Shown: positions 2,645 through 27,000 of the stretch, in pieces
Numbering within the stretch: the first letter of the stretch is position 1
Layout: each line of letters starts with the position of its first letter
Assembly (NCBI GenBank): GCA_035531495.1
Contig: DATKSU010000006.1
Location: forward strand, 1,821 to 65,820
Direction of reading: 5' to 3'
DNA from: Minisyncoccota bacterium
GTDB taxonomy: Bacteria; Patescibacteriota; Minisyncoccia; Phycocordibacterales; Phycocordibacteraceae
Length of the DNA stretch: 64,000 nucleotides
Notes under the pieces: model-generated
Told to the model about the DNA's origin: nothing
Database searches by the model: none
Seen by the model: only the letters and a program-made list of their open reading frames with translations
Program-made: the position numbers and the translations under genes

Positions 2645-3546
2645 GAGAGGCCGAGCCGGTAGATATCGAACGAGTTCTCGCCCTCGAACATGTCGGAAGG
2701 GTTCGGGAGGAAGAGCCGCGGACGGGCGAGCTCCGCGGTCGCGTCGTTCACGAGCCGCCGGAAGACCTCGAAAGATTCCGCGTGCGCGGCGTAATCGAGC
2801 ACGTAGCGGCGCAGCTGCGCCCCGCCATCCGCGTTCCGGCGCTTCTTGCATTCGTAGACGATGAAGCGGCGTACAGGCTTGCCGAAACGGTCGCGCACCG
2901 TGAAGTAATTGAAAAGGGCCTGGATGACGAAGAGCGGCTTCGCCGGCCCGAGCGAGCTGAACGAGTCCACGAACTTGTGATCGATGACGTCGACGGCGTC
3001 CGGATCCTCGCGCGAGACGACGACAAGATCCGACACGGCTTTGAGCGGGAGCGCGAAGCCTTCGACCGCAGCGACGGCGGCGACCTCGACGCCGAGCACG
3101 TCGTGCCGCGGCGCCCGCGCCAGATAGAAACCGATGGCCTGCAGGTACTCGCGTTCCATCGAGGCGCGCTTGGCCTTCTGCGCGGCGCGCGTCGCCGCTT
3201 TCCCGAAATTAAGCTCGAAGTCAGGCACGGCGCGCAGGTACTCGAGGCCGAGCGCGGTCGCCGTCGCCTTGTCCGCGCCGCTATAACACTTTCTCAAAAG
3301 TGCTTCCGAGGAAGCGGTGCCTCCAGCGTTCGCATAGCGCTCGCTCACCTGGAGGTAGAAATGCTCGAGCGCCTTGTGCCCCGCGCTCCCGACGACGGCC
3401 GACGGCGAGCGCGGCGCGTCGTATATCTTCTCGACGTAGCGCTTGTGCCAGGCAAGCGGGTTCCGGAGGAACGCCATGAGCGATGAATGGCTCCAGTGCT
3501 CGATAGGCAGGACCTTCCTCCGTGCGGACTTACGCGCCTTCTTCAT
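2641..3546 (-). CDS. PD-(D/E)XK superfamily nuclease
   Basis: VDVIDHKF and IVYECKK motifs match a D...D/ExK nuclease core. The start is taken at the first internal ATG (M24), which has a TACAAT box 6 nt upstream and no SD, so it looks leaderless. Confidence 0.65.
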   Translation of the reverse strand: MKKARKSARRKVLPIEHWSHSSLMAFLRNPLAWHKRYVEKIYDAPRSPSAVVGSAGHKALEHFYLQVSERYANAGGTASSEALLRKCYSGADKATATALGLEYLRAVPDFELNFGKAATRAAQKAKRASMEREYLQAIGFYLARAPRHDVLGVEVAAVAAVEGFALPLKAVSDLVVVSREDPDAVDVIDHKFVDSFSSLGPAKPLFVIQALFNYFTVRDRFGKPVRRFIVYECKKRRNADGGAQLRRYVLDYAAHAESFEVFRRLVNDATAELARPRLFLPNPSDMFEGENSFDIYRLGLS

Positions 3547-3704
3547 GCGGGCATTGTACCCCAACACTTCATAGCGCCCGCGCCCGGCGTTAGGGCACGA
3601 GGTAGCCCGCCGCAACGATGGCAGAAAAATTCGTCTTGAACAACCGTAACCGAGGAAGAAAAGCGAAACGGCGGGGAACCCCGCCGTTTTTTATCTGCTT
3701 AATA

Positions 3705-4946
<1,242 letters not shown>

Positions 4947-4963
4947 GGTAAGTAAATAAGATT

Positions 4964-6652
4964 TTAGTGATGTTCGCCGACGCGCGCGAGCCGTGCCGAG
5001 AGCGTCGCGCACTCGGCCTGCGCACGTCCAGCCGCGGCCGCATCGCCTGCGGCCTCGGCTCTTCGGAGTGAGTTCACTGCTTCTTGATACGCCTCGCGGA
5101 TCACCGCTTCTTCAAAGGCGCGGAGAAGTTCATCCGCAGCGTCCTCCGAGGGCTCCTCGCCAAGCATCTCTTCCGCTTTGAAGAGCGCGGCTTCCGGGAG
5201 CGCATCCGAGGGCAGCTGGTGAGCTTCGGTGATACGAGTGTACTCCCCTCGCACGCGCTCGGCAAGCGGCGTCCCGGGATAGGCCTGGATAACGGCGAGG
5301 AGCTGCTCGCTCCGCATCTCCCGCGGGGATCGCGCGGCGGCCGGCGCCTTCGCCGACGCTGTGGCCGGCGCCTCTTCCCTGATGACGGGTGATTTCGGCA
5401 CCGAACCGCGTACGGCTTCGTCGGAGAGTCCGAGCGCGCGGGCCGTGACATGCACGAAGTGCTCGCGCTCCATGGGGCTCGGGATGGCCGCAATCAAGGG
5501 GAGCACGATGCGCTCGGCAGCGCGCAGGAGCCGGTGCGGATCCGTCTCGCGCTCGGCGAGCGACGCGAGGAAGAACTCGACGACGGGCTTCGCCTCCTTG
5601 ATGCGGAGCGAGAACTCCTTCGGGTCTTCGAGCACGAGGTCCGCCGGGTCCTTGCCGGCCGGCAGTCGCGCCGCCTTCACCCGCAGACCCTGCGTGAGCG
5701 CGAGCGCGGCCGACTTCGCGGTTGCGGTGAGGCCGGCCGGATCCGCGTCGAGCGCGAGCATGAGGTTCTCGCTGTAGCGCTTCATGAGCGCGAGGTGCGC
5801 GGCAGTGAGCGCGGTTCCGGAGAGAGCGACGGCGTTTCCGAACCCCGCCTGGTGCGCGAGGAGGACGTCCATCTGCCCTTCGACAAGGAGCGTGAAGCCG
5901 CGGGTGCGGATGGCGTCTTTCGCGCGGTCGAGGCCGAAGAGGATGTCAGATTTATGGTAGAGCTCGGTCTCGGGGCTATTCAGATACTTGGCCGGCTCGT
6001 CGACCGCGAGCGCGCGACCCGTGAAGGCGACGACGCGGCCGGCGACGTCGCGTATCGGGAAGATGAGGCGATTCCGGAACCGGTCGTAGTAGGTGCCGGG
6101 CTTGCCGTCCGCTTCCTTCACGAGGCCGGCCGCCGCGAGCTCGCTCGCCGAGAAACCTTCGGCCGCGAGCGTCTCAAGGAGAGCCCGCCAGCCGTCCGGC
6201 GCATAGCCGAGCCGCCAGGCCGCCACCGTCTCGTCGGCGAGCCCGCGCTTCTTCGCATACGCCGCGGCCGGGCTGTCCGCGAGCGTGCGGGCGTACCATT
6301 CGGTCGCGCGCATCATCGCCTCGCGCAGCCGTTCCGTGCGGCTCGCGCGCTCTTTCGAACGCGAGTCGTAGACGAGCTCGACGCCCGCCTTTTCGGCGAG
6401 GATCTTCAGAGCGCCCTTAAAATCGACGCCCTCCACCTTCTCGACGAAGGAGAACAGGTCGCCACCGAGACCGCAGCCGAAGCAGTGCCACGTCCCGCGC
6501 TCGAGCGAGACGTGGAAGGACGACGTCTTCTCCTTGTGGAACGGGCAGAGGCCGACGAGCGACTTCCCTGCCCGCTTCAGCTTCACGTACGGGCTGATGA
6601 CGTCATTGATGGAGAGACGGTCCTTGATCTCGGCGACCGTATCCCGCGCCAT
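4964..6652 (-). CDS. dnaG: DNA primase
   Basis: Zinc-binding [13 protein letters not shown]...WHCFGCG motif and a TOPRIM region (LVEGQMD). Start at M33 ([13 protein letters not shown]), 4 nt after the rpoC stop. Confidence 0.9.
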
Positions 6653-21217: not shown

Positions 21218-22117
21218 TTACGGCGTCGGCCCGCTCTTATCGAGCAGCTTCTGCACGGCCGCCGTGACGATGGGCAGCATGTCGTCATAGAAATTGAGGT
21301 CGATGATGTCCTGGAGCCTGAACCACTTGGCGTCGTCGAGTCCGCCGCTCTTCTTGAGCGTCAAGGGCTCGAACGCGGAAGACGCGAGGAAGAACCAGAC
21401 ATGCTTCCTGACGCGCCCTTTCTCCGGATGCGAGGCGACATACTCGTTCTCACCTACCTGACCTTCAACCGCCGCCGTGAGCCCGAGCTCCTCCTTGATG
21501 ATGCGCACGACGCCCTCCTGCGGCGTCGGATCGGCCTCGATGTGGCCTTTCGAGAGCGTCCAGTGGCCGAAGACGTCATGGACGAGTGCGAGATAATACT
21601 GGCCGTCGTGCTTGGCGTAGACGATGGCGCCGCCCATCTTCTCGAGCGGCAGCTCTTCGCGCCGCACTTTCTTCTTCCCCTGCTCGTCCTTGCCGGGTTC
21701 GCCGAGTTCCTTATAGACGGCGCCGAGGACGCCGTTGACGAAGCGGCCGGAGGATTCCCCGCCGAAGGTCTTGGCGAGCTCGATGGCCTCGTTGATGGCG
21801 ACTTTCGCCGGCACCTGCGTCCGGTCGGCGAAGAGGAGCTCGTAGAGGCCGAGTCGCAGGATGTTGCGGTCGACGGGCGCGATGCGGTCTAAGGGCCACT
21901 CGGGCGCAGCCTTCTCGATGACGAGGTCGAGGTCGGCGTGCTTCGCAAGCACGCCGGAAAGGAGTTGTTCCATGAACGGCTGGTCGGTGCTGTCGCCCGC
22001 GAATTCCTCGATGTTGCGGGCGAGGACGCCGGCCGCGTCTTCCTCGGACAGGTGCGTCGTATCCCACTCAAAGAGCGTCTGCAGTACGACCGAACGCGCT
22101 AAGTGCCGATTCGCCAT
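21218..22117 (-). CDS. nusB: NusB antitermination factor fused to a C-terminal NUDIX hydrolase domain
   Basis: An N-terminal ~140 aa NusB fold (SVVLQTLFEWD...AINEAIELAKTFGG) joined to a C-terminal Nudix box GHWTLSKGHIEADPTPQEGVVRIIKEELGL in one ORF. Confidence 0.75.
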   Translation of the reverse strand: MANRHLARSVVLQTLFEWDTTHLSEEDAAGVLARNIEEFAGDSTDQPFMEQLLSGVLAKHADLDLVIEKAAPEWPLDRIAPVDRNILRLGLYELLFADRTQVPAKVAINEAIELAKTFGGESSGRFVNGVLGAVYKELGEPGKDEQGKKKVRREELPLEKMGGAIVYAKHDGQYYLALVHDVFGHWTLSKGHIEADPTPQEGVVRIIKEELGLTAAVEGQVGENEYVASHPEKGRVRKHVWFFLASSAFEPLTLKKSGGLDDAKWFRLQDIIDLNFYDDMLPIVTAAVQKLLDKSGPTP

Positions 22118-22200: not shown

Positions 22201-22560
22201 TTACGACGCCTGCCCGCCCATGCCGCTTCTTGCTTTCGGACGGCTGCCGGCCGCAAGCTTGCCGAGGAAACCCTTCGACGTCTTCGCTGCGGCGTTCACG
22301 TGCTCCGCGTGCGCATGCTCATGCGCGTGCGCCGACACGGGTTCCGTGTCCGGACCCTTCTTCGCCTTCGGCGCGCGCGCCTGCTTCCCTTTCGGCGCGA
22401 AAATCTGCTTCCCGCGGTACATGCCCGTCGTCTCGTCGACGCGGTGCGGGAGGACGAGCGTGCCGCTCGCCGCGTCCTTCACAGCGCGGATGCCCGTGAG
22501 TGCGTGGTGCGACCGGCGGTTGCCGGTGTGACCCCTCGTATGGCGCATGCGGATTGACAT
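22201..22560 (-). CDS. rpmF: 50S ribosomal protein L32 with ~60-aa basic/His-rich C-terminal extension
   Basis: N-terminal RRSHHALT...YRGK bL32 motif, an AAGGTG SD 7 nt upstream, and a tail containing AHAHEHAHAEH. Confidence 0.8.
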   Translation of the reverse strand: MSIRMRHTRGHTGNRRSHHALTGIRAVKDAASGTLVLPHRVDETTGMYRGKQIFAPKGKQARAPKAKKGPDTEPVSAHAHEHAHAEHVNAAAKTSKGFLGKLAAGSRPKARSGMGGQAS

Positions 22561-22589
22561 GAGCGCACCTTATCACGGAGAGAATGAAA

Positions 22590-22625
22590 AGCAAAGCGGT
22601 CCTCGTCGAGGACCGCGATGGCGAA
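22590..22625 (-). terminator. hairpin plus U-rich tract between small ORF and rpmF (terminator/attenuator candidate)
   Basis: GCGGUCCUCG/CGAGGACCGC stem followed by UUUGCUUUUCAUUCUCUCC on the minus strand. Confidence 0.4.
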
Positions 22626-22649: not shown

Positions 22650-23033
22650 TCAGCGTTGCGATTCACGCATCGCTATGACCTCTTTGACGAACGGGTGCGG
22701 GCCCTTCCGTCGTTTCCGATTCCGGACCATAGGGAGCGGCGAGCTGCCGTCGCATGCCTGAACTTGGACGATCGTCACGTACGTCGCGACTTGCCCCGTA
22801 TGCCCGCAGAGCATCTCGCACCTGCCGTCGACTTCCCTCGTCCTGCCGGAGCACCCGTTACAGCTGGCACAACGCTCGAACCCCGTGCCAGCGAGCTGTC
22901 GCGCATGCTTCTCGATGAGGGCGCGATCCGTGCGGCTCGACACCCGTGATGGGGAGTTCTGTTTATTCAGCACTGGTAATTTCCTTCTCGTTGAGGACTG
23001 CGCTTGCCTGAGCCCCATGCCCGAGGCAGCCAT
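22650..23033 (-). CDS. hypothetical small Cys-containing protein (possible very divergent YceD/DUF177-like, upstream of rpmF)
   Basis: ORF taken from the internal ATG (M32) just after repeat element A. It has CASCNGC and CEMLC cysteine pairs and a C-terminal PHPF. Its position before rpmF matches the yceD-rpmF arrangement. The codon usage of the N-terminal third is atypical. Confidence 0.35.
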   Translation of the reverse strand: MAASGMGLRQAQSSTRRKLPVLNKQNSPSRVSSRTDRALIEKHARQLAGTGFERCASCNGCSGRTREVDGRCEMLCGHTGQVATYVTIVQVQACDGSSPLPMVRNRKRRKGPHPFVKEVIAMRESQR

Positions 23034-23037
23034 AGTT

Positions 23038-23095
23038 TTAATCCCATTCAGAGCCGAAATCAAGGCGTGAAAACGGCCGGCGGTGGATAAAGAGG
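23038..23095 (-). promoter_or_regulatory. conserved upstream element copy A (promoter-like hexamers TTGATT-N17-TAAAAC plus TATCCACCGCCGGCCGTTTT motif)
   Basis: About 55 nt sharing TATCCACCGCCGGYCGTTTT...CCTTG.AT...GGGATTA with copy B at 23461-23518. Both copies lie directly upstream of a small ORF. Confidence 0.45.
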
Positions 23096-23132
23096 CGGGC
23101 GCTGCTCGTTGAGCGGCGCCCGGCACCGGGCC

Positions 23133-23423
23133 TCATCGGCCATCGGGGAGTTCATCGGATGACCAATAGGGACAGCCGATCGTCTCCTCAGGGACTTTCA
23201 GTTGATCGAGGATCTCGCACTTCACGACCGTGGATCTGCCTCCGCCGTCCGGGTCGTGTGGCGGGAAGTACCAGTTGGCGCCGCTGCATTTCCGGTAGAC
23301 GCCGTCCGCTTCTCGCACGCAGTCGAATTTTGCATCTCTGAGTTTCTTGACGGTCGCGAGGAGCGCGCCGTCATAATGAGCGCTTCTTGGGTGGGAAAGG
23401 GTCTCGCTCAAGGGAATCTCCAT
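23133..23423 (-). CDS. hypothetical small Cys-containing protein (97 aa)
   Basis: ORF from MEIPLSE with four Cys and host-like codon usage. It is preceded by element B, an AGGAGG, and a 4-codon mini-ORF inside a CCGGGC/GCCCGG hairpin. Confidence 0.45.
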   Translation of the reverse strand: MEIPLSETLSHPRSAHYDGALLATVKKLRDAKFDCVREADGVYRKCSGANWYFPPHDPDGGGRSTVVKCEILDQLKVPEETIGCPYWSSDELPDGR

Positions 23424-23460
23424 AAAGGTCAAACCGGGCGCATGCCCGGCTCTCCTCCTT

Positions 23461-23518
23461 CTAATCCCGTGCGCGACGGGATGCAAGGTGCAAAAACGAC
23501 CGGCGGTGGATAGCGCAC
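23461..23518 (-). promoter_or_regulatory. conserved upstream element copy B (TTGCAT-N17-TAGAAG plus TATCCACCGCCGGTCGTTTTT motif), overlapping the rnhB 3' end
   Basis: Sequence repeat of element A, with an ATCCCGT-CGCGC-ACGGGAT hairpin inside the spacer. Confidence 0.45.
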
Positions 23519-24060
23519 GGACCATGCACAGCAAGCGCCGCATAGTGCGCCTTCGTCCCGTACCCTTTGTGCCGCTCGAAGCCGTACGCCGGATGCTCGA
23601 GCGCGAGGCGCTGCATGAGGCGGTCGCGCGTCACTTTCGCCGCGATGGACGCGAGCGAGATGAGCGGGACGAGCTCGTCGCCGTCGATGATGGTCCGCTG
23701 CACGTATTCGGCGGGCGCGCGTAGCGCGCCGTCGAGCTCGACCGTGGCGAGCGCCGCGTCCGGCGCGAGCGCGTTCACGCCGCGCGCGACCGCGCGGCGC
23801 ACGACGGTCGCGATGCCCTCCGCATCGATGGCCGCCGCGCTCTCGAGCTCGACAACGAAGCGCGCGTCGCCCTGCGCAGCGCGGCGCTCGAGAAGCGCGA
23901 AGAGCGCCTCTCGTTTCTTCCCCGACAGCTGCTTCGAGTCGCGGACGCCGGAGAATTCCCGCGCGACGTCGAATCCCTCGGGCACTGCGACGACGCCGAC
24001 CGCTACCGGACCGGCCAAGGGCCCGCGCCCTGCCTCATCGACGCCGAGCACGAATCGCAT
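23461..24060 (-). CDS. rnhB: ribonuclease HII
   Basis: GVDEAGRGPLAGPV active-site N-terminus and HRRSF C-terminal motif. The start is uncertain: M18 gives 24060, while M10 at 24084 gives the typical N-terminal length but overlaps the dnaE start head-to-head. Confidence 0.8.
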   Translation of the reverse strand: MRFVLGVDEAGRGPLAGPVAVGVVAVPEGFDVAREFSGVRDSKQLSGKKREALFALLERRAAQGDARFVVELESAAAIDAEGIATVVRRAVARGVNALAPDAALATVELDGALRAPAEYVQRTIIDGDELVPLISLASIAAKVTRDRLMQRLALEHPAYGFERHKGYGTKAHYAALAVHGPCAIHRRSFLHLASRRARD

Positions 24061-24082
24061 CCAGAAAGTATACTGGAAGGGC

Positions 24083-27000
24083 ATGGCGAGCCGGTTCATC
24101 CACCTCCACACCCATAGCCACTACAGCTTCCTCCAGGCGCTGCCGAAAGTGGATGAGCTCGTCGAGAAAACCAAGGCCGAGGGGATGGACGCGCTCGCGC
24201 TCACCGACGCCGGCAACATGCACGGCGCCATCGAATTCTATAAAGCGGCCATGAAGGCGGGCGTGAAGCCCATCCTCGGCGTCGACACCTATCTCGCGCC
24301 GCGCTCACGGCACGAGAAGGACCGCGTGCTCGACGCGAAGCGCTCGCGCATCGTGCTCCTCGCGGAGAACGACGCCGGCTACAAGAACCTCCTCGTCCTC
24401 GTGACGAAGTCGTGGACTGAGGGCTTCTTCGAGCGGCCGCGCGTCGACAAGGAGCTCCTGCGGGAGCACGCGGACGGCATCATCGCCATCCTCCCGTCCT
24501 TCTCGGGCGACGTCGCGCAGCTCCTGCGCGCCGGCGACCCAGACGGCGCCGCGGCGGCCGCCGCGGAATTCACGGACATCTTCCCCGCCGATGGCGGGGC
24601 GAGCGGCCGCGAACCCCGGCTATTCCTCGAGGTCACACACCACCCGCGCGTGCGCGGGCACGAGGCGCTCATGCAGAAGATTGTCGCGCTCTCGCGCGAG
24701 AGCGCGACGCCGCTCGTCGCCCAGCACGACGTCTACCACCTCGAGCCCGACGATCGCGTTGCGACCGAGATCATGCGCCGCATCCGCCAGGGCGAGCGCG
24801 GCCGGAACGAAGAAGAGGATTTCTCTTTCATCAGCGAGAAGATGGCGATCGCGTACTTCAAGGACCTCCCTGACGCGATTGGAAACACGCGCGCCATCGC
24901 CGACCGCTGCTCGGTCGAATTCACGCTCGGGAAGTGGACCTTCCCCGCCGTACCGGTCTCGCCGGGCTTCGCGAATCACGATGAGGAGCTGCGCGCGAAA
25001 GCGTATGCGGGCATCACGGCGCGCGGGCTCGCGGAGACGCCCGCCATCATCGAGCGGGTCGAGTACGAGCTCAAGATTATCATCGACAAAGGCTTCGCCG
25101 TGTACTACCTCATCGTCGCCGACCTCCTCGCTTTCGCGAAGAGCGCCGGCATCCTCACGACGACGCGCGGCTCGGCGGGCGGCTCTCTCGTCGCCTATCT
25201 CGTCGGCATCACGAATGTCGATCCGCTTTTCTATAAGCTGCCGTTCGAGCGCTTCCTCAACCCCGAACGCCCGAAGGCCCCCGACATCGACATGGACATG
25301 GCTGACAACCGCCGTGACGAGATGATCGCGTATGCGAAGCGCACGTACGGCGACGACCACGTCGCGCAGATCGGCACGTTCGGTACGATGATGGCGCGCG
25401 CGGCCGTGCGCGACGTGGCGCGCGCGCTCGGCCATTCCTACACGACCGGCGACCGCATCGCGAAGCTCATCCCCATCGGCTCGCAGGGCTTCCCGATGAC
25501 CATCGAGCACGCGCTCGAGCTCGAGCCGGATCTGAAGGCCATTTACGACGAGGATGAGGACGCGCACGAGATTATTGACCTCGCCCGCCGCATTGAGGGC
25601 TGCGTGCGACACGTCGGCGTGCACGCAGCGGGCGTCGTCGTCGCACCGACGCCCTTGGTCGAGTGGACGCCCATCCAGCCGGACCCGAAAGGCACCGGCA
25701 AGCTCATCACGCAGTACGATATGTACTCGATTACCGACGAGTACGGCGGGGTCGGCCTCCTCAAGTTCGACTTCCTCGGCATCAAGAACCTCTCCATCCT
25801 CGCCGACGCGGTCGCGCGCGTCGCGGCGACGCGCGGCATCGCCGTCGACATCGAGAATGTCCCGCTTGACGACGCGAAGACGTTCGCGATGCTCGCGAAG
25901 GGCGACACCGAGGGCGTCTTTCAGCTGAACGGCTCCGGCATGACCCGCTGGCTCAAAGAGCTCAAGCCCTCGACCATCCACGACATCAACGCCATGGTCG
26001 CCCTCTACCGCCCGGGCCCGATGGAGACCATCCCCGGCTATATCGAGCGCAAGCGCAATCCGCGCATGATCCGCTTCGAGGACGAGCGTATGAAGGAATA
26101 TCTCGACGCCTCCTACGGCCTCCTCGTCTACCAGGACGACGTGCTCCTCACCGCTATCACGCTCGCCGGCTACTCCTGGCTCGAGGCCGACGCCTTGCGC
26201 AAGGCGATGGGCAAGAAGATACCGGAGGAGATGGCCGCGCAGAAAGAAAAGCTCATGAAAGGGTTCATGGAGCACGGCAAGCTTTCTCGGGAGAAGTCCG
26301 AGCGGCTCTGGAAGCTCATCGAGCCCTTCGCCGCCTACGGTTTCAACAAGGCGCACGCCGCGAGCTACGGCAAGGTCGCCTACCAGACCGCCTACATGAA
26401 GGCGAACTATCCCGTCGAATACCTGGCCGCTCTCCTCACGGCGGATTCGGGCGATACCGACCGCATCGCCGTCCTCGTCGCGGAAGCGAAACGCATGGGC
26501 ATCCCGGTCCTGCCGCCGGACGCGAACGAGAGCTCTTCGGACTTCACGGTCGTCGGCGAGAAGAAGGACGCCATCCGCTTCGGCCTCTCTTCCATCAAGA
26601 ACTTCGGCGAAGGCGTCGCGGGCGCAATCCTCGCGGAGCGCGAGGCGCACGGTCCGTTTGCTTCGCTCGCGAACTTTCTCTCCCGCGTCGGCTCGAAGAA
26701 CTTGAACCGCAAGTCGCTCGAGGCGCTCATTAAGTGCGGCGCGCTCGATTCGCTCGGCGACCGGAGCGCGCTCCTCGGCGGCATCGAGACCCTGCTCGAA
26801 TTCCATCGCGAGGCGACGGCCGAAGCGCCGCAGGATTCCCTCTTCGGCGCGCTCATGGCGCCGCCGCCCTTGGAGCTCGCGCCCGGCGCGCCGATATCGC
26901 TCACCGACAAGCTTGCCTGGGAGAAGGAGCTCCTCGGCATCTACGTCTCCGGCCATCCGCTCGACGCGCATCCGGCGACGATGGCGAAGGTGAAGGTGTC

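Follow-up and report, generated by a model that had tools for sequence, protein, structure and literature searches.

Two small genes, g1 and g2, stand in tandem between rnhB and rpmF in the DNA analysed here, and a similar element of about 55 bp precedes each of them. This arrangement raises the question of what the element is and how two such genes came to stand one behind the other. The explanation that we regard as probable is that the repeat is the 3′ end of rnhB with a promoter embedded in it, and that a relic copy of this end serves the second of two stacked cassettes. The window, by which we mean the whole stretch of 64,000 nucleotides, contains the parent gene and the two copies at the following positions.

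23461..24060, minus strand: rnhB, encoding RNase HII (199 aa), parent of the repeated segment (Pfam RNase_HII 1.4e-33; 199 aa also called in identical contigs)
23458..23512, minus strand: copy B, the last 17 codons and stop of rnhB (AIHRRSFLHLASRRARD, then stop), holding the candidate promoter P-g1 (from the repeat, the frame and a position equivalent to the conserved promoter of relatives)
23035..23089, minus strand: copy A, a non-coding relic of the rnhB 3′ end (FIHRRPFSRLDFGSEWD, then stop), holding the candidate promoter P-g2 (from alignment and stop register)

The duplication was found where the preliminary description had placed it, as an ungapped minus-strand element of 54-55 nt with 71-72% identity. 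A repeat search pairs 23036-23089 with 23459-23512 (54 nt, 72% identical, without gaps), and a direct count over 23035-23089 and 23458-23512 gives 39 identical positions out of 55. The spacing from copy to copy is 423 nt, or 141 codons. Copy B had been described as overlapping the end of rnhB and does more than that, as all of it lies inside the gene except 3 nt past the stop. What had been missed is that copy A retains the rnhB reading frame, with a stop codon in the same register. Since copy A reads FIHRRPFSRLDFGSEWD and a stop in this register, it is a remnant of the end of rnhB that no longer codes; its homology to the parent gene is well above chance, the local alignment of the rnhB tail with the downstream interval reaching z = 14 against shuffles.

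It had been proposed earlier that the TATCCACCGCCGGYCGTTTT block, whose core resembles a DnaA box, is a regulator site co-controlling both small genes, perhaps within a regulon. The block is far better kept between the copies than the rest of the repeat (1 mismatch in 20 positions versus 15 in 35; Fisher p 0.004), it is equidistant from both -35 hexamers, and TTATCCACC is a one-mismatch DnaA box. However, the block consists of the codons (A/F)-I-H-R-R-S/P-F of a conserved C-terminal motif of RNase HII, is equally kept in rnhB of relatives without a cassette, and has decayed or is missing upstream of the second cassette in the two-cassette loci L007 and L090. One-mismatch DnaA boxes are scattered and not clustered (6 versus 2.4 expected), and TATCCACCGCCGG simply represents the codons I-H-R-R of the motif, being neither a DnaA box nor an operator. 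The proposed regulon likewise found no footing, as a search with TATCCACCGCCGG returned exactly two copies in 64 kb and none elsewhere in the window, where the 13-mer core of the repeat also occurs only twice. We therefore consider a shared regulator site very unlikely. Taken alone, the repeat is an ordinary footprint of a duplicated gene-end piece with a promoter inside, and an operator or a regulon motif should therefore not be seen in it.

The uneven divergence would not be predicted by simple neutral decay of a relic, and needs either a crossover or gene-conversion tract in the block or a second role for it. One possible second role is in termination, since base pairing between the block and GGCCCGGUG at the g1 stop can close a compound terminator that is followed by GUUUUC. 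The length of the tail and its GGGATTAR end are common to both copies and absent from every sampled relative; these shared features may reflect a copy made within the lineage or an import from an unsampled close relative.

Sigma70-like hexamers are present at the places reported earlier, both with 17-nt spacers. P-g1 in copy B has the -35 TTGCAT at 23486-23481 and the -10 TAGAAG at 23463-23458, and P-g2 in copy A has the -35 TTGATT at 23063-23058 and the -10 TAAAAC at 23040-23035, all on the minus strand. Their match in the window is poor (7/12 in copy B, 8/12 in copy A, the last -10 position not being T), and a strict promoter scan found nothing. The comparison covered about 90 related Paceibacteria loci, with the promoters counted on 77 loci with a cassette and 17 without. 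Relatives score 9-11/12 at the same position, across the rnhB stop, and at least 9/12 with a 17-nt spacer is reached by 45% of the cassette-bearing loci, by none of the 17 cassette-less loci and by 1.3% of control windows. The earlier claim of a promoter before each small gene thus gains from the comparison with relatives and loses from the weak hexamers of the window itself. The assignment to the sigma-70 class draws on this positional conservation and on the cognate RpoD-type sigma factor encoded in the window (regions 1.1-4 at 3705-5012). A weak match of the family G2 HMM at 3546-3698 was discarded as a non-coding segment adjoining rpoD.

The rnhB tail of the relatives reads IHRRSF[ILV]HL[DA].., and the same DNA carries TTGAYT-17-TAYAVT across the stop. 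Loci with a cassette also have a longer RNase HII tail (median 7 aa, versus 3 aa without one; p 0.027). The last RNase HII codons (..I-H-R-R-S-F-x-H-L-D/A..stop) would double as the promoter of the next gene, with the -35 in the H-L-D/A codons and the -10 on or just past the rnhB stop. We infer that the hexamers of P-g1 and P-g2 fire. This would be a clean case of DNA serving as both codons and promoter, in which a coding relic survives because of the promoter. Internal promoters are present in the yceD-rpmF-plsX-fab cluster of E. coli (Tanaka 1989; Podkovyrov & Larson 1995, as cited in PMC5049393), and the likeness lies in sigma-70-type -35 and -10 elements that drive the next gene from within the end of the ORF before it, or from a position straddling that end, so that codons and promoter share the same DNA. 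The rnhB promoter differs in that it appears to have shaped the C-terminal extension of RNase HII, as suggested by the longer tail in the presence of a cassette, and in that a relic copy of the coding end is carried along for a second gene.

The window carries two tandem cassettes, g1 (family B) followed by g2 (family G2). In each cassette the transcript would start with a stem-loop, continue through a pyrimidine (CTTT) box and a Shine-Dalgarno sequence (SD), and end at a hairpin terminator; the product would be a small (80-110 aa) four-cysteine protein, probably zinc-binding, and rpmF would start afterwards from its own leaderless promoter. The order observed in the relatives, where a small gene separates rnhB from rpmF, is the rnhB-stop promoter, 5′ hairpin, CTTT box, SD, small four-cysteine gene, terminator and, finally, rpmF with its own leaderless promoter. 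The first cassette of the window comprises three features past copy B.

23431..23452, minus strand: 5′ leader hairpin of g1, GAGCCGGGC-AUGC-GCCCGGUUU (leader fold dG -23.1 kcal/mol, z -3.65)
23133..23423, minus strand: g1, small four-cysteine protein, divergent member of family B, 96 aa from ATG 23423 (family-B HMM; called as a gene in public contigs)
23096..23122, minus strand: terminator-like hairpin past g1, CGGGCGCCGCTC-AAC-GAGCAGCGCCCG, with a weak U-tract CCUCUUUAU (inverted repeat of 12 nt, 92% complementary; fold)

The four cysteines attributed to g1 were confirmed, and its length was corrected from 97 to 96 aa; TTG 23411, 6 nt past GGAG, is an alternative start. The family-B HMM matches g1 over positions 12-76 with 19.4 bits (E 1.2e-5), in itself a weak score; of 200 shuffles, the best reached 2.1 bits, and g1 is the top match among 857 six-frame segments of the window. 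The match spans the four-cysteine core, and all four cysteines align to the profile, which places g1 in family B. A single-sequence search of 5.8 G proteins returned only g1 itself, and an exhaustive phmmer search of 1.84 G representatives returned g1 and three repeat proteins. The latter were judged spurious, their scores being sums of many weak stretches.

The g1 leader hairpin begins at the predicted +1 (about 23451). AGGAGG (23459-23454), the mini-ORF ATGCGCCCGGTTTGA (23443-23429) and the hairpin (23452-23431) all exist as first reported, the mini-ORF lying inside the hairpin. The leader-peptide control suggested on this basis is not borne out, as the mini-ORF is not kept in the equivalent hairpins of most relatives and the predicted +1 falls downstream of AGGAGG. 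A search of Rfam with the window interval and five relatives gave no match. Across 23 cassettes a 5′ hairpin lies directly past the -10 (mean z -1.96, p 1e-7), and relatives show almost no variation in its 5′ arm CTTGTGTCC, a hint that the sequence itself may matter too. Among the fetched loci, CTTGTGTCCAG, a word of the leader, is found only at this locus, except for one match in L060, an unrelated contig. The 5′ UTR of ompA is an example of a 5′-terminal stabilising stem-loop of bacterial mRNA. The cassette hairpin resembles such stem-loops in its predicted position, within a few nt of the +1 and followed by a single-stranded region and SD, and differs from them in the near-invariance of its 5′ arm. 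The leader hairpin would act as a 5′ stabiliser and the hairpins past the genes as terminators. The strict terminator scan did not call the hairpin past g1, and since this hairpin is without a good U-tract, transcripts begun upstream could also extend into g2.

The second cassette and the right-hand boundary of the site contain five further features.

23002..23030, minus strand: 5′ leader hairpin of g2, GCUGCCU...AGGCAAGC, then pyrimidine box GUCCUC and SD GAAGGA (fold)
22650..22973, minus strand: g2, small zinc-ribbon-like protein of family G2, 107 aa from GTG 22973 (G2 HMM 108 bits; homologues; AF2 pLDDT 80)
22586..22616, minus strand: intrinsic terminator past g2, GCGGUCCUC-GAC-GAGGACCGC and UUUGCUUUUC (terminator scan; equivalent hairpin and T-run in relatives)
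22567..22575, minus strand: extended -10 of rpmF, TGATAAGGT (kept in relatives as TTTTTTATAC-N-TGnTAnnGT)
22201..22560, minus strand: rpmF (L32, 119 aa), right-hand boundary of the cassette site (Pfam Ribosomal_L32p)

The second gene had been given as 127 aa. An ORF of this length is indeed open from ATG 23033, but GTG 22973 is the likeliest start, as it has the SD GAAGGA and agrees with the start of the homologues; it gives a protein of 107 aa. Family G2 comprises 22 database homologues plus 7 loci, and all members are located between rnhB and rpmF. The invariant residues of the family (C35, C38, G40, C56, Q70, C74, G76 and P79) are all present in g2, which together with the locus assigns it to G2. 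A single-sequence search with g2 gave no match; no entry of Pfam, NCBIfam or PADLOC matched g1, g2 or the representatives taken from families B, C and G2, PDB sequences gave no match, and viral contigs held no G2 homologue. The idea, formed by eye, that g2 is a cysteine-containing paralogue of L32 was dropped, as there was no Ribosomal_L32p match. The extended -10 stops 6 nt before the rpmF ATG at 22560, and the rpmF mRNA would therefore be leaderless.

The position of g2 directly upstream of rpmF, where yceD lies in most bacteria (PMC5049393), had suggested that g2 is a very divergent DUF177/YceD protein, in which case the cassette would be an ordinary yceD-rpmF pair; the likeness extends to a small cysteine-containing protein with C-x2-C and a K-P-H-P-F tail loosely resembling KPNPF of E. 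coli YceD. However, 0 of 23 members of the G2 family match PF02620 at E<=1, and g1 and g2 give nothing, whereas the positive control, E. coli YceD, matches at 4.5e-21. An hhalign comparison of the G2 family profile with E. coli YceD gives a probability of 0.16% (E 0.37), and the PHPF tail belongs to the G2 family in its own right, as HKPHPIFRR. A DUF177 domain measures about 120-150 aa and contains a C-X2-C and a C-X3-C separated by about 95 residues (PMC5049393), whereas the conserved core of G2 measures about 60 aa, lacks C-X3-C and has C35-x2-C38, C56 and C74 within a stretch of about 40 residues, and the cassette genes are about half the size. Unlike in the yceD-rpmF operon, the predicted terminator (22616-22586) and the conserved leaderless rpmF promoter separate the cassette gene from rpmF, and some relatives are without any gene between rnhB and rpmF. 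Finally, few bacterial genes are as conserved as DUF177 (PMC5049393), whereas the cassette gene is hypervariable and replaceable. The identification of g2 as DUF177 is thus extremely improbable.

The preliminary description had spoken of two unknown proteins inserted between rnhB and rpmF. Comparison of this interval does not support that reading, as a small gene is present here in most relatives, and it is the presence of two that makes the window unusual. The flanking genes dnaE, rnhB, rpmF, nusB and rnc are found in all loci. Of the other two-cassette loci, L090 carries B+G2 and L007 carries B+B, and in both the second cassette is preceded by shorter remnants of the rnhB tail, among them a relic AAATAG stop. 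TTATCCACC in the L090 relic was considered as the I-H-R-R block and rejected, because the alignment puts this relic on the later F-I-H-L-D-F codons; its breakpoint therefore differs from that of the window.

A recent in-situ tandem duplication of the whole 423-nt unit (rnhB tail, gene and terminator), making g1 and g2 young paralogues, would account for a spacing that is a multiple of three, for the equal tail length and GGGATTAR end of both copies and for the CTCRACGAG centre in both terminator loops, and L007 does have two clear paralogues (E 2.5e-9). Against this, the g1 and g2 families differ and each is older than the lineage of the window, and their B+G2 order recurs in L090. BLASTP detects no similarity between g1 and g2, and outside the repeat the two units have a DNA similarity score of 13 versus a null of 11.1 +/- 1.4, that is, none; recent paralogy was rejected on these grounds. 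As similarity is absent outside the repeat, only the gene end was duplicated, and we consider duplication of the whole unit very unlikely. Stacking would instead have come about by recombination that used homology in or close to rnhB at one end and was illegitimate at the other. Because the cassette promoter lies inside rnhB, a cassette stacked downstream keeps its own promoter only behind a piece of the rnhB end. Copy A would be that piece, a full-length relic that has lost its coding role and may still provide the -35 and -10 before g2.

A particular form of this preferred explanation, not exclusive of it, is a Campbell-type or gene-conversion event, in which a related strain provided a circular or linear cassette that recombined via the conserved I-H-R-R-S-F block, leaving the block near-identical and one tail each from donor and resident. 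It accounts for the block-wise conservation, and orthologous rnhB tails show exactly such a pattern, L011 sharing 18/18 nt with copy B and then diverging. Sharp-edged cassette replacement is frequent among close relatives, and the GC3 of g1 (0.69) and g2 (0.75) is lower than that of their neighbours (0.78-0.90). However, donor-like sequence was not found, six independent assemblies have 0 SNPs and include no variant without g1, and a block of 20 nt offers little length for homologous recombination to be efficient. We regard this particular route as rather unlikely.

Close relatives with 80-100% identical flanks have unrelated cassettes between rnhB and rpmF, and the interval is therefore a cassette-replacement hot spot. 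We raise as a possibility, more doubtful than not, that in this Paceibacteria clade it is a dedicated cassette-exchange site, with a fixed expression platform on the left (rnhB-end promoter, 5′ hairpin and pyrimidine box) and a T-run and leaderless rpmF promoter on the right. Hyper-divergent alleles of one four-cysteine, basic-tailed small protein would be swapped there by recombination and sometimes stacked, as in the window, L007 and L090, implying diversifying or frequency-dependent selection. Integron arrays and idiomorph-like or pherotype-type loci have conserved flanks and unrelated interiors, which are sometimes stacked. The present site may be likened to such gene-cassette and allelic-replacement loci in its fixed position, conserved flanks, unrelated interiors in close relatives and occasional stacking. 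It differs from an integron in that its flanks are without an integrase and without attC-like inverted repeats, no cassette-bounding inverted repeat being found except the terminators, and in that each cassette has a platform promoter and leader instead of a single Pc. Cassette exchange here seems to proceed via ordinary flank homology.

Through the repeat, a hypervariable family of small Cys4 proteins that is locked to one locus came to light in Patescibacteria; it has a conserved expression platform, and its cassettes are clearly replaced between near-identical genomes. Replacement loci of this sort are usually a sign of conflict or recognition selection on the genes they contain. If the cassette-exchange pattern is true, it would imply a conflict or recognition function for a zinc-binding protein in episymbiotic bacteria. 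As a separate observation, the neighbourhood illustrates the compactness that CPR promoters can reach, with a bidirectional palindromic -10 and with rpmF, rnhB and dnaE predicted to be leaderless.

The repeat in front of g1 and g2, the two small Cys-protein ORFs between rnhB (RNase HII) and rpmF (L32), is by itself a commonplace footprint; more interesting are the dual-use end of rnhB and the hypervariable site around it, which is occupied by cassettes, i.e., units of promoter, 5′ hairpin, small four-Cys gene, and terminator. The contig (G+C content of 64.6%) comes from uncultured Patescibacteria (Paceibacteria/Kaiserbacteria-like). Identical contigs are present in ENA, JGI, and Logan assemblies, and the nearest genomes carry the labels Paceibacterota, Kaiserbacteria, or Minisyncoccota. 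The gene order is dnaE (divergent), rnhB, g1, g2, rpmF, nusB-NUDIX, and rnc, and those discussed here all lie on the minus strand.

24060-23461, minus strand, rnhB
23423-23133, minus strand, g1
22973-22650, minus strand, g2
22560-22201, minus strand, rpmF

A repeat search confirmed the duplication noted in the preliminary description: 23036-23089 (copy A, before g2) and 23459-23512 (copy B, at the rnhB end before g1) align ungapped over 54 nt with 72% identity at an offset of 423 nt, and the hexamers, AGGAGG, mini-ORF, and hairpin were all verified at their coordinates. Within the whole window there are exactly two occurrences of the 13-mer TATCCACCGCCGG, and local alignment of the rnhB tail with the downstream interval gives z = 14. 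Copy B comprises the final 17 rnhB codons and the stop (AIHRRSFLHLASRRARD-stop); copy A, 141 codons away, reads FIHRRPFSRLDFGSEWD-stop in the rnhB register, with its stop codon at the same position. Because HRRSF is a conserved C-terminal RNase HII motif in all relatives, TATCCACCGCCGG represents the codons I-H-R-R, and words of this block are also found in rnhB of relatives with or without a following gene. Copy A is accordingly a remnant of the 3′ end of rnhB rather than primarily a regulatory motif. An operator or DnaA box, as had been proposed, is thus not what the block represents; judging from the codons, its DnaA-box likeness is a by-product of (V/A/F)-I-H. One-mismatch DnaA boxes (TTATCCACA) number 6 in the whole window against 2.4 expected (6 reached in 3/100 shuffles), and are scattered (13760, 23082, 38339, 43966, 50074, and 55598) in a manner that is not origin-like. 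Both small ORFs also stay open upstream through their own repeat copies in the same relative frame (..LSTAGRF..; 23126-23033 and 23543-23424, minus strand), giving ORFs of 158 aa and 136 aa. The leader is likewise open in frame in relatives, and some database entries are annotated with such N-terminal extensions, which are probably gene-calling artefacts.

The comparison of the locus covered two sets of 80, genome loci with RnhB and metagenome loci with NusB-NUDIX. The order dnaE (divergent)-rnhB-gap-rpmF-nusB is conserved across the fetched loci, with a gap of 320-900 nt in most relatives and 28-100 nt in some. The long-gap loci share one architecture, in which the rnhB tail reads ...ATC CAC CGN CGN TCN TTY ATC CAY CTT GAT TTY AAG NNN AAA TAG, TTGATT sits within the H-L-D-F codons, and TACAGT, TATACT, or TACAAT follows 17 nt later, on or after the rnhB stop. 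Next comes a hairpin with a variable loop, starting at the predicted +1 (5′ arm CTTGTGTCC, 3′ arm GGRCACAA); after it lie an A-rich spacer, then a GATCTTT/GATCCTT box and, before the small ORF, the SD GGAG. A GC hairpin with a T-run closes the unit, and behind it stands TTTTTTATAC-N-TGnTAnnGT, which stops 6-7 nt before the rpmF ATG. A promoter straddling the rnhB stop (at least 9/12 hexamer matches and a 17-nt spacer) was found in 45% of 77 long-gap loci, compared to 0/17 short-gap loci and 1.3% of 1940 control windows, and the RNase HII tail past HRxxF has a median of 7 residues in cassette loci versus 3 (p 0.027). The 5′ hairpin occurs in 23 cassettes, with a mean z of -1.96 (p 1e-7), and the sequence of its stem varies in some, both window leaders among them. 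Among 171 fetched loci, the leader word CTTGTGTCCAG is limited to the rnhB-rpmF locus, save for a single occurrence on the unrelated contig L060.

The promoters proposed earlier are therefore supported by position, by comparison across relatives, and by the RpoD-type sigma-70 encoded in the window (complete with regions 1.1, 1.2, 2, 3, and 4; 3705-5012, minus strand), although the window's own hexamers are weak (TTGCAT/TAGAAG, 7/12; TTGATT/TAAAAC, 8/12) and a strict promoter scan of the window called neither of them; that both fire is inferred. With the -10 at 23463-23458, the transcript would start near 23451, at the base of the g1 hairpin, so that AGGAGG would lie outside the g1 transcript. 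The hairpin is real and conserved in position, but the mini-ORF is not conserved in relatives, which speaks against a leader peptide. The CTTT-n-GGAG-n6-9-start arrangement of relatives suggests TTG 23411, instead of ATG 23423, as a possible start of g1. The earlier interpretation was accordingly partly right, in its promoter, and mistaken about the operator/DnaA box, the leader peptide, and a DUF177 identity of g2.

Against the DUF177 identity, 0/23 members of family G2, to which g2 belongs, match PF02620 at E<=1 (E. coli YceD control, 4.5e-21), hhalign of the G2 profile with YceD gives a probability of 0.16%, and the C-X2-C/C-X3-C pair ~95 residues apart described for DUF177 (PMC5049393) is absent from G2. 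A terminator (22616-22596, terminator scan) and a separate promoter lie between g2 and rpmF. Neither g1 nor g2 matched Pfam, NCBIfam, or PADLOC, and BLASTP detected no similarity between them. Clustering groups the gap ORFs of relatives into families; g2, in family G2, has tblastn matches in the relative loci L016, L088, L090, L107, L118, L119, and L128, and a profile search added 22 further proteins, every one hypothetical and lacking Pfam domains. All three additional members looked up, which have long contigs, lie at rnhB-X-rpmF-nusB. Invariant in G2 are C35, C38, G40, C56, Q70, C74, G76, and P79, and the basic family tail, ..HKPHPIFRR, accounts for the 'PHPF' remarked on in g2. The most likely g2 start is GTG 22973, preferred for its SD GAAGGA and its match to the L016 homologue start; the alternative ATG 23033 lies just one base past the -10. 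The AlphaFold model of g2 (pLDDT 80; core >90) predicts a helix, a CxxC turn, a β-hairpin, a short strand and helix, a basic stretch that is disordered, and a helix at the C-terminus, for which Foldseek returned no significant match in PDB or BFVD.

The g1 protein matches the profile of family B over the entire four-Cys core (19.4 bits, E 1.2e-5; at most 2.1 bits in 200 shuffles) and is its top match among 857 six-frame window segments. Links between profiles are weak (B-G2, E 0.004; G2-D, E 0.001) and align GF..C, a central C, and [IV][ST]..[EQ]A..C, a layout also found in most unclassified cassettes; together these suggest that the families probably form one hyper-divergent superfamily. Given the invariant Cys4 and the basic tail, the favoured reading is that the proteins may bind zinc and associate with nucleic acids.

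As to the origin of the second copy, recent duplication of the whole unit is unlikely, because the two window units show no significant DNA similarity outside the repeat and g1 and g2 belong to different old families. As the -35 lies inside rnhB, a cassette stacked with its own promoter would place a piece of the rnhB end before the downstream gene. Two relatives, L090 (B+G2, as in the window) and L007 (B+B), carry such a relic before the second cassette (..TTATCCACCCCCCTTGATTTTATCCCCAAATAG|GACTATACT), which aligns to the F-I-H-L-D-F..K-stop part only; its left breakpoint differs from the window's, so the stacking events appear independent. Among the loci compared, only the window has a full-length relic. 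Mismatches between its two copies are unevenly spread, with 1/20 in the first block versus 15/35 in the rest (p 0.004), and the copies have in common a tail length and a GGGATTAR end, neither found in any relative. Of three possible accounts, one is a crossover or conversion tract located in the I-H-R-R-S-F block; orthologous rnhB tails show the same block pattern, L011 sharing 18/18 nt with copy B. Another is import from a close relative outside the sample. In the third, the first block would have a second role, supplying the 3′ arm as well as the U-tract of a compound terminator for g1. In the RNA fold, this block (CACCGCCGGCC in copy A) base-pairs with GGCCCGGUG, located at the stop codon of g1 (23060-23145, minus strand), enclosing the g1 terminator hairpin and followed by GUUUUC, with z only -2.0; such a terminator could possibly constrain the block.

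Cassette families are mosaic on the NusB tree, content differing in 68/96 genome pairs with NusB identity of at least 88%. In the close pairs examined (L114/L118, L117/L119, L123/L127 with NusB 98%, L116/L121, L010/L089, and the second cassette of L007/L090), flanks are 80-100% identical and cassette interiors 27-55%, and the edges are sharp, falling within the leader and at either the terminator or the T-run. The pattern is one of cassette replacement between conserved flanks; with such flanks, unrelated interiors, and sharp breakpoints, the rnhB-rpmF gap is a replacement hot spot. The GC3 of g1 (0.69) and g2 (0.75), lower than the 0.78-0.90 of neighbouring genes, is consistent with exchange.

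Gaps of 450-500 nt in L020 (5577-6074) and L022 (4666-5118) hold no convincing Cys-protein-type ORF and may be decayed cassettes or non-coding RNA; in the more distant relatives L029, L044, L049, L058, and L079, a free-standing NUDIX gene fills the gap. In the window, NusB and a C-terminal NUDIX domain form one fusion protein (21218-22117, minus strand, 299 aa; Pfam NusB and NUDIX), with 62-88% identity across the clade. The window L32 (22201-22560, minus strand) has 119 aa, ~2x the usual length, with a long basic/His-rich C-terminal extension and without zinc-ribbon cysteines. Within 22558-22575, rpmF has an extended -10 (TGATAAGGT) whose end lies 6 nt ahead of the ATG; the mRNA would be leaderless, and the element TTTTTTATAC-N-TGnTAnnGT is conserved in relatives; the small Cys genes, unlike rpmF, have structured 55-70-nt leaders with an SD. 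The start codons of dnaE (plus strand) and rnhB (minus strand) are 22 bp apart (24060-24083), and the spacer centre (24067-24074) is the palindrome AGTATACT, giving TATACT on either strand, 6 nt from the rnhB ATG and 8 nt from the dnaE ATG. This suggests a common bidirectional -10 serving two leaderless mRNAs, and ~25 relatives retain a 20-23-bp spacer with AGTATACT or AGTATATACT.
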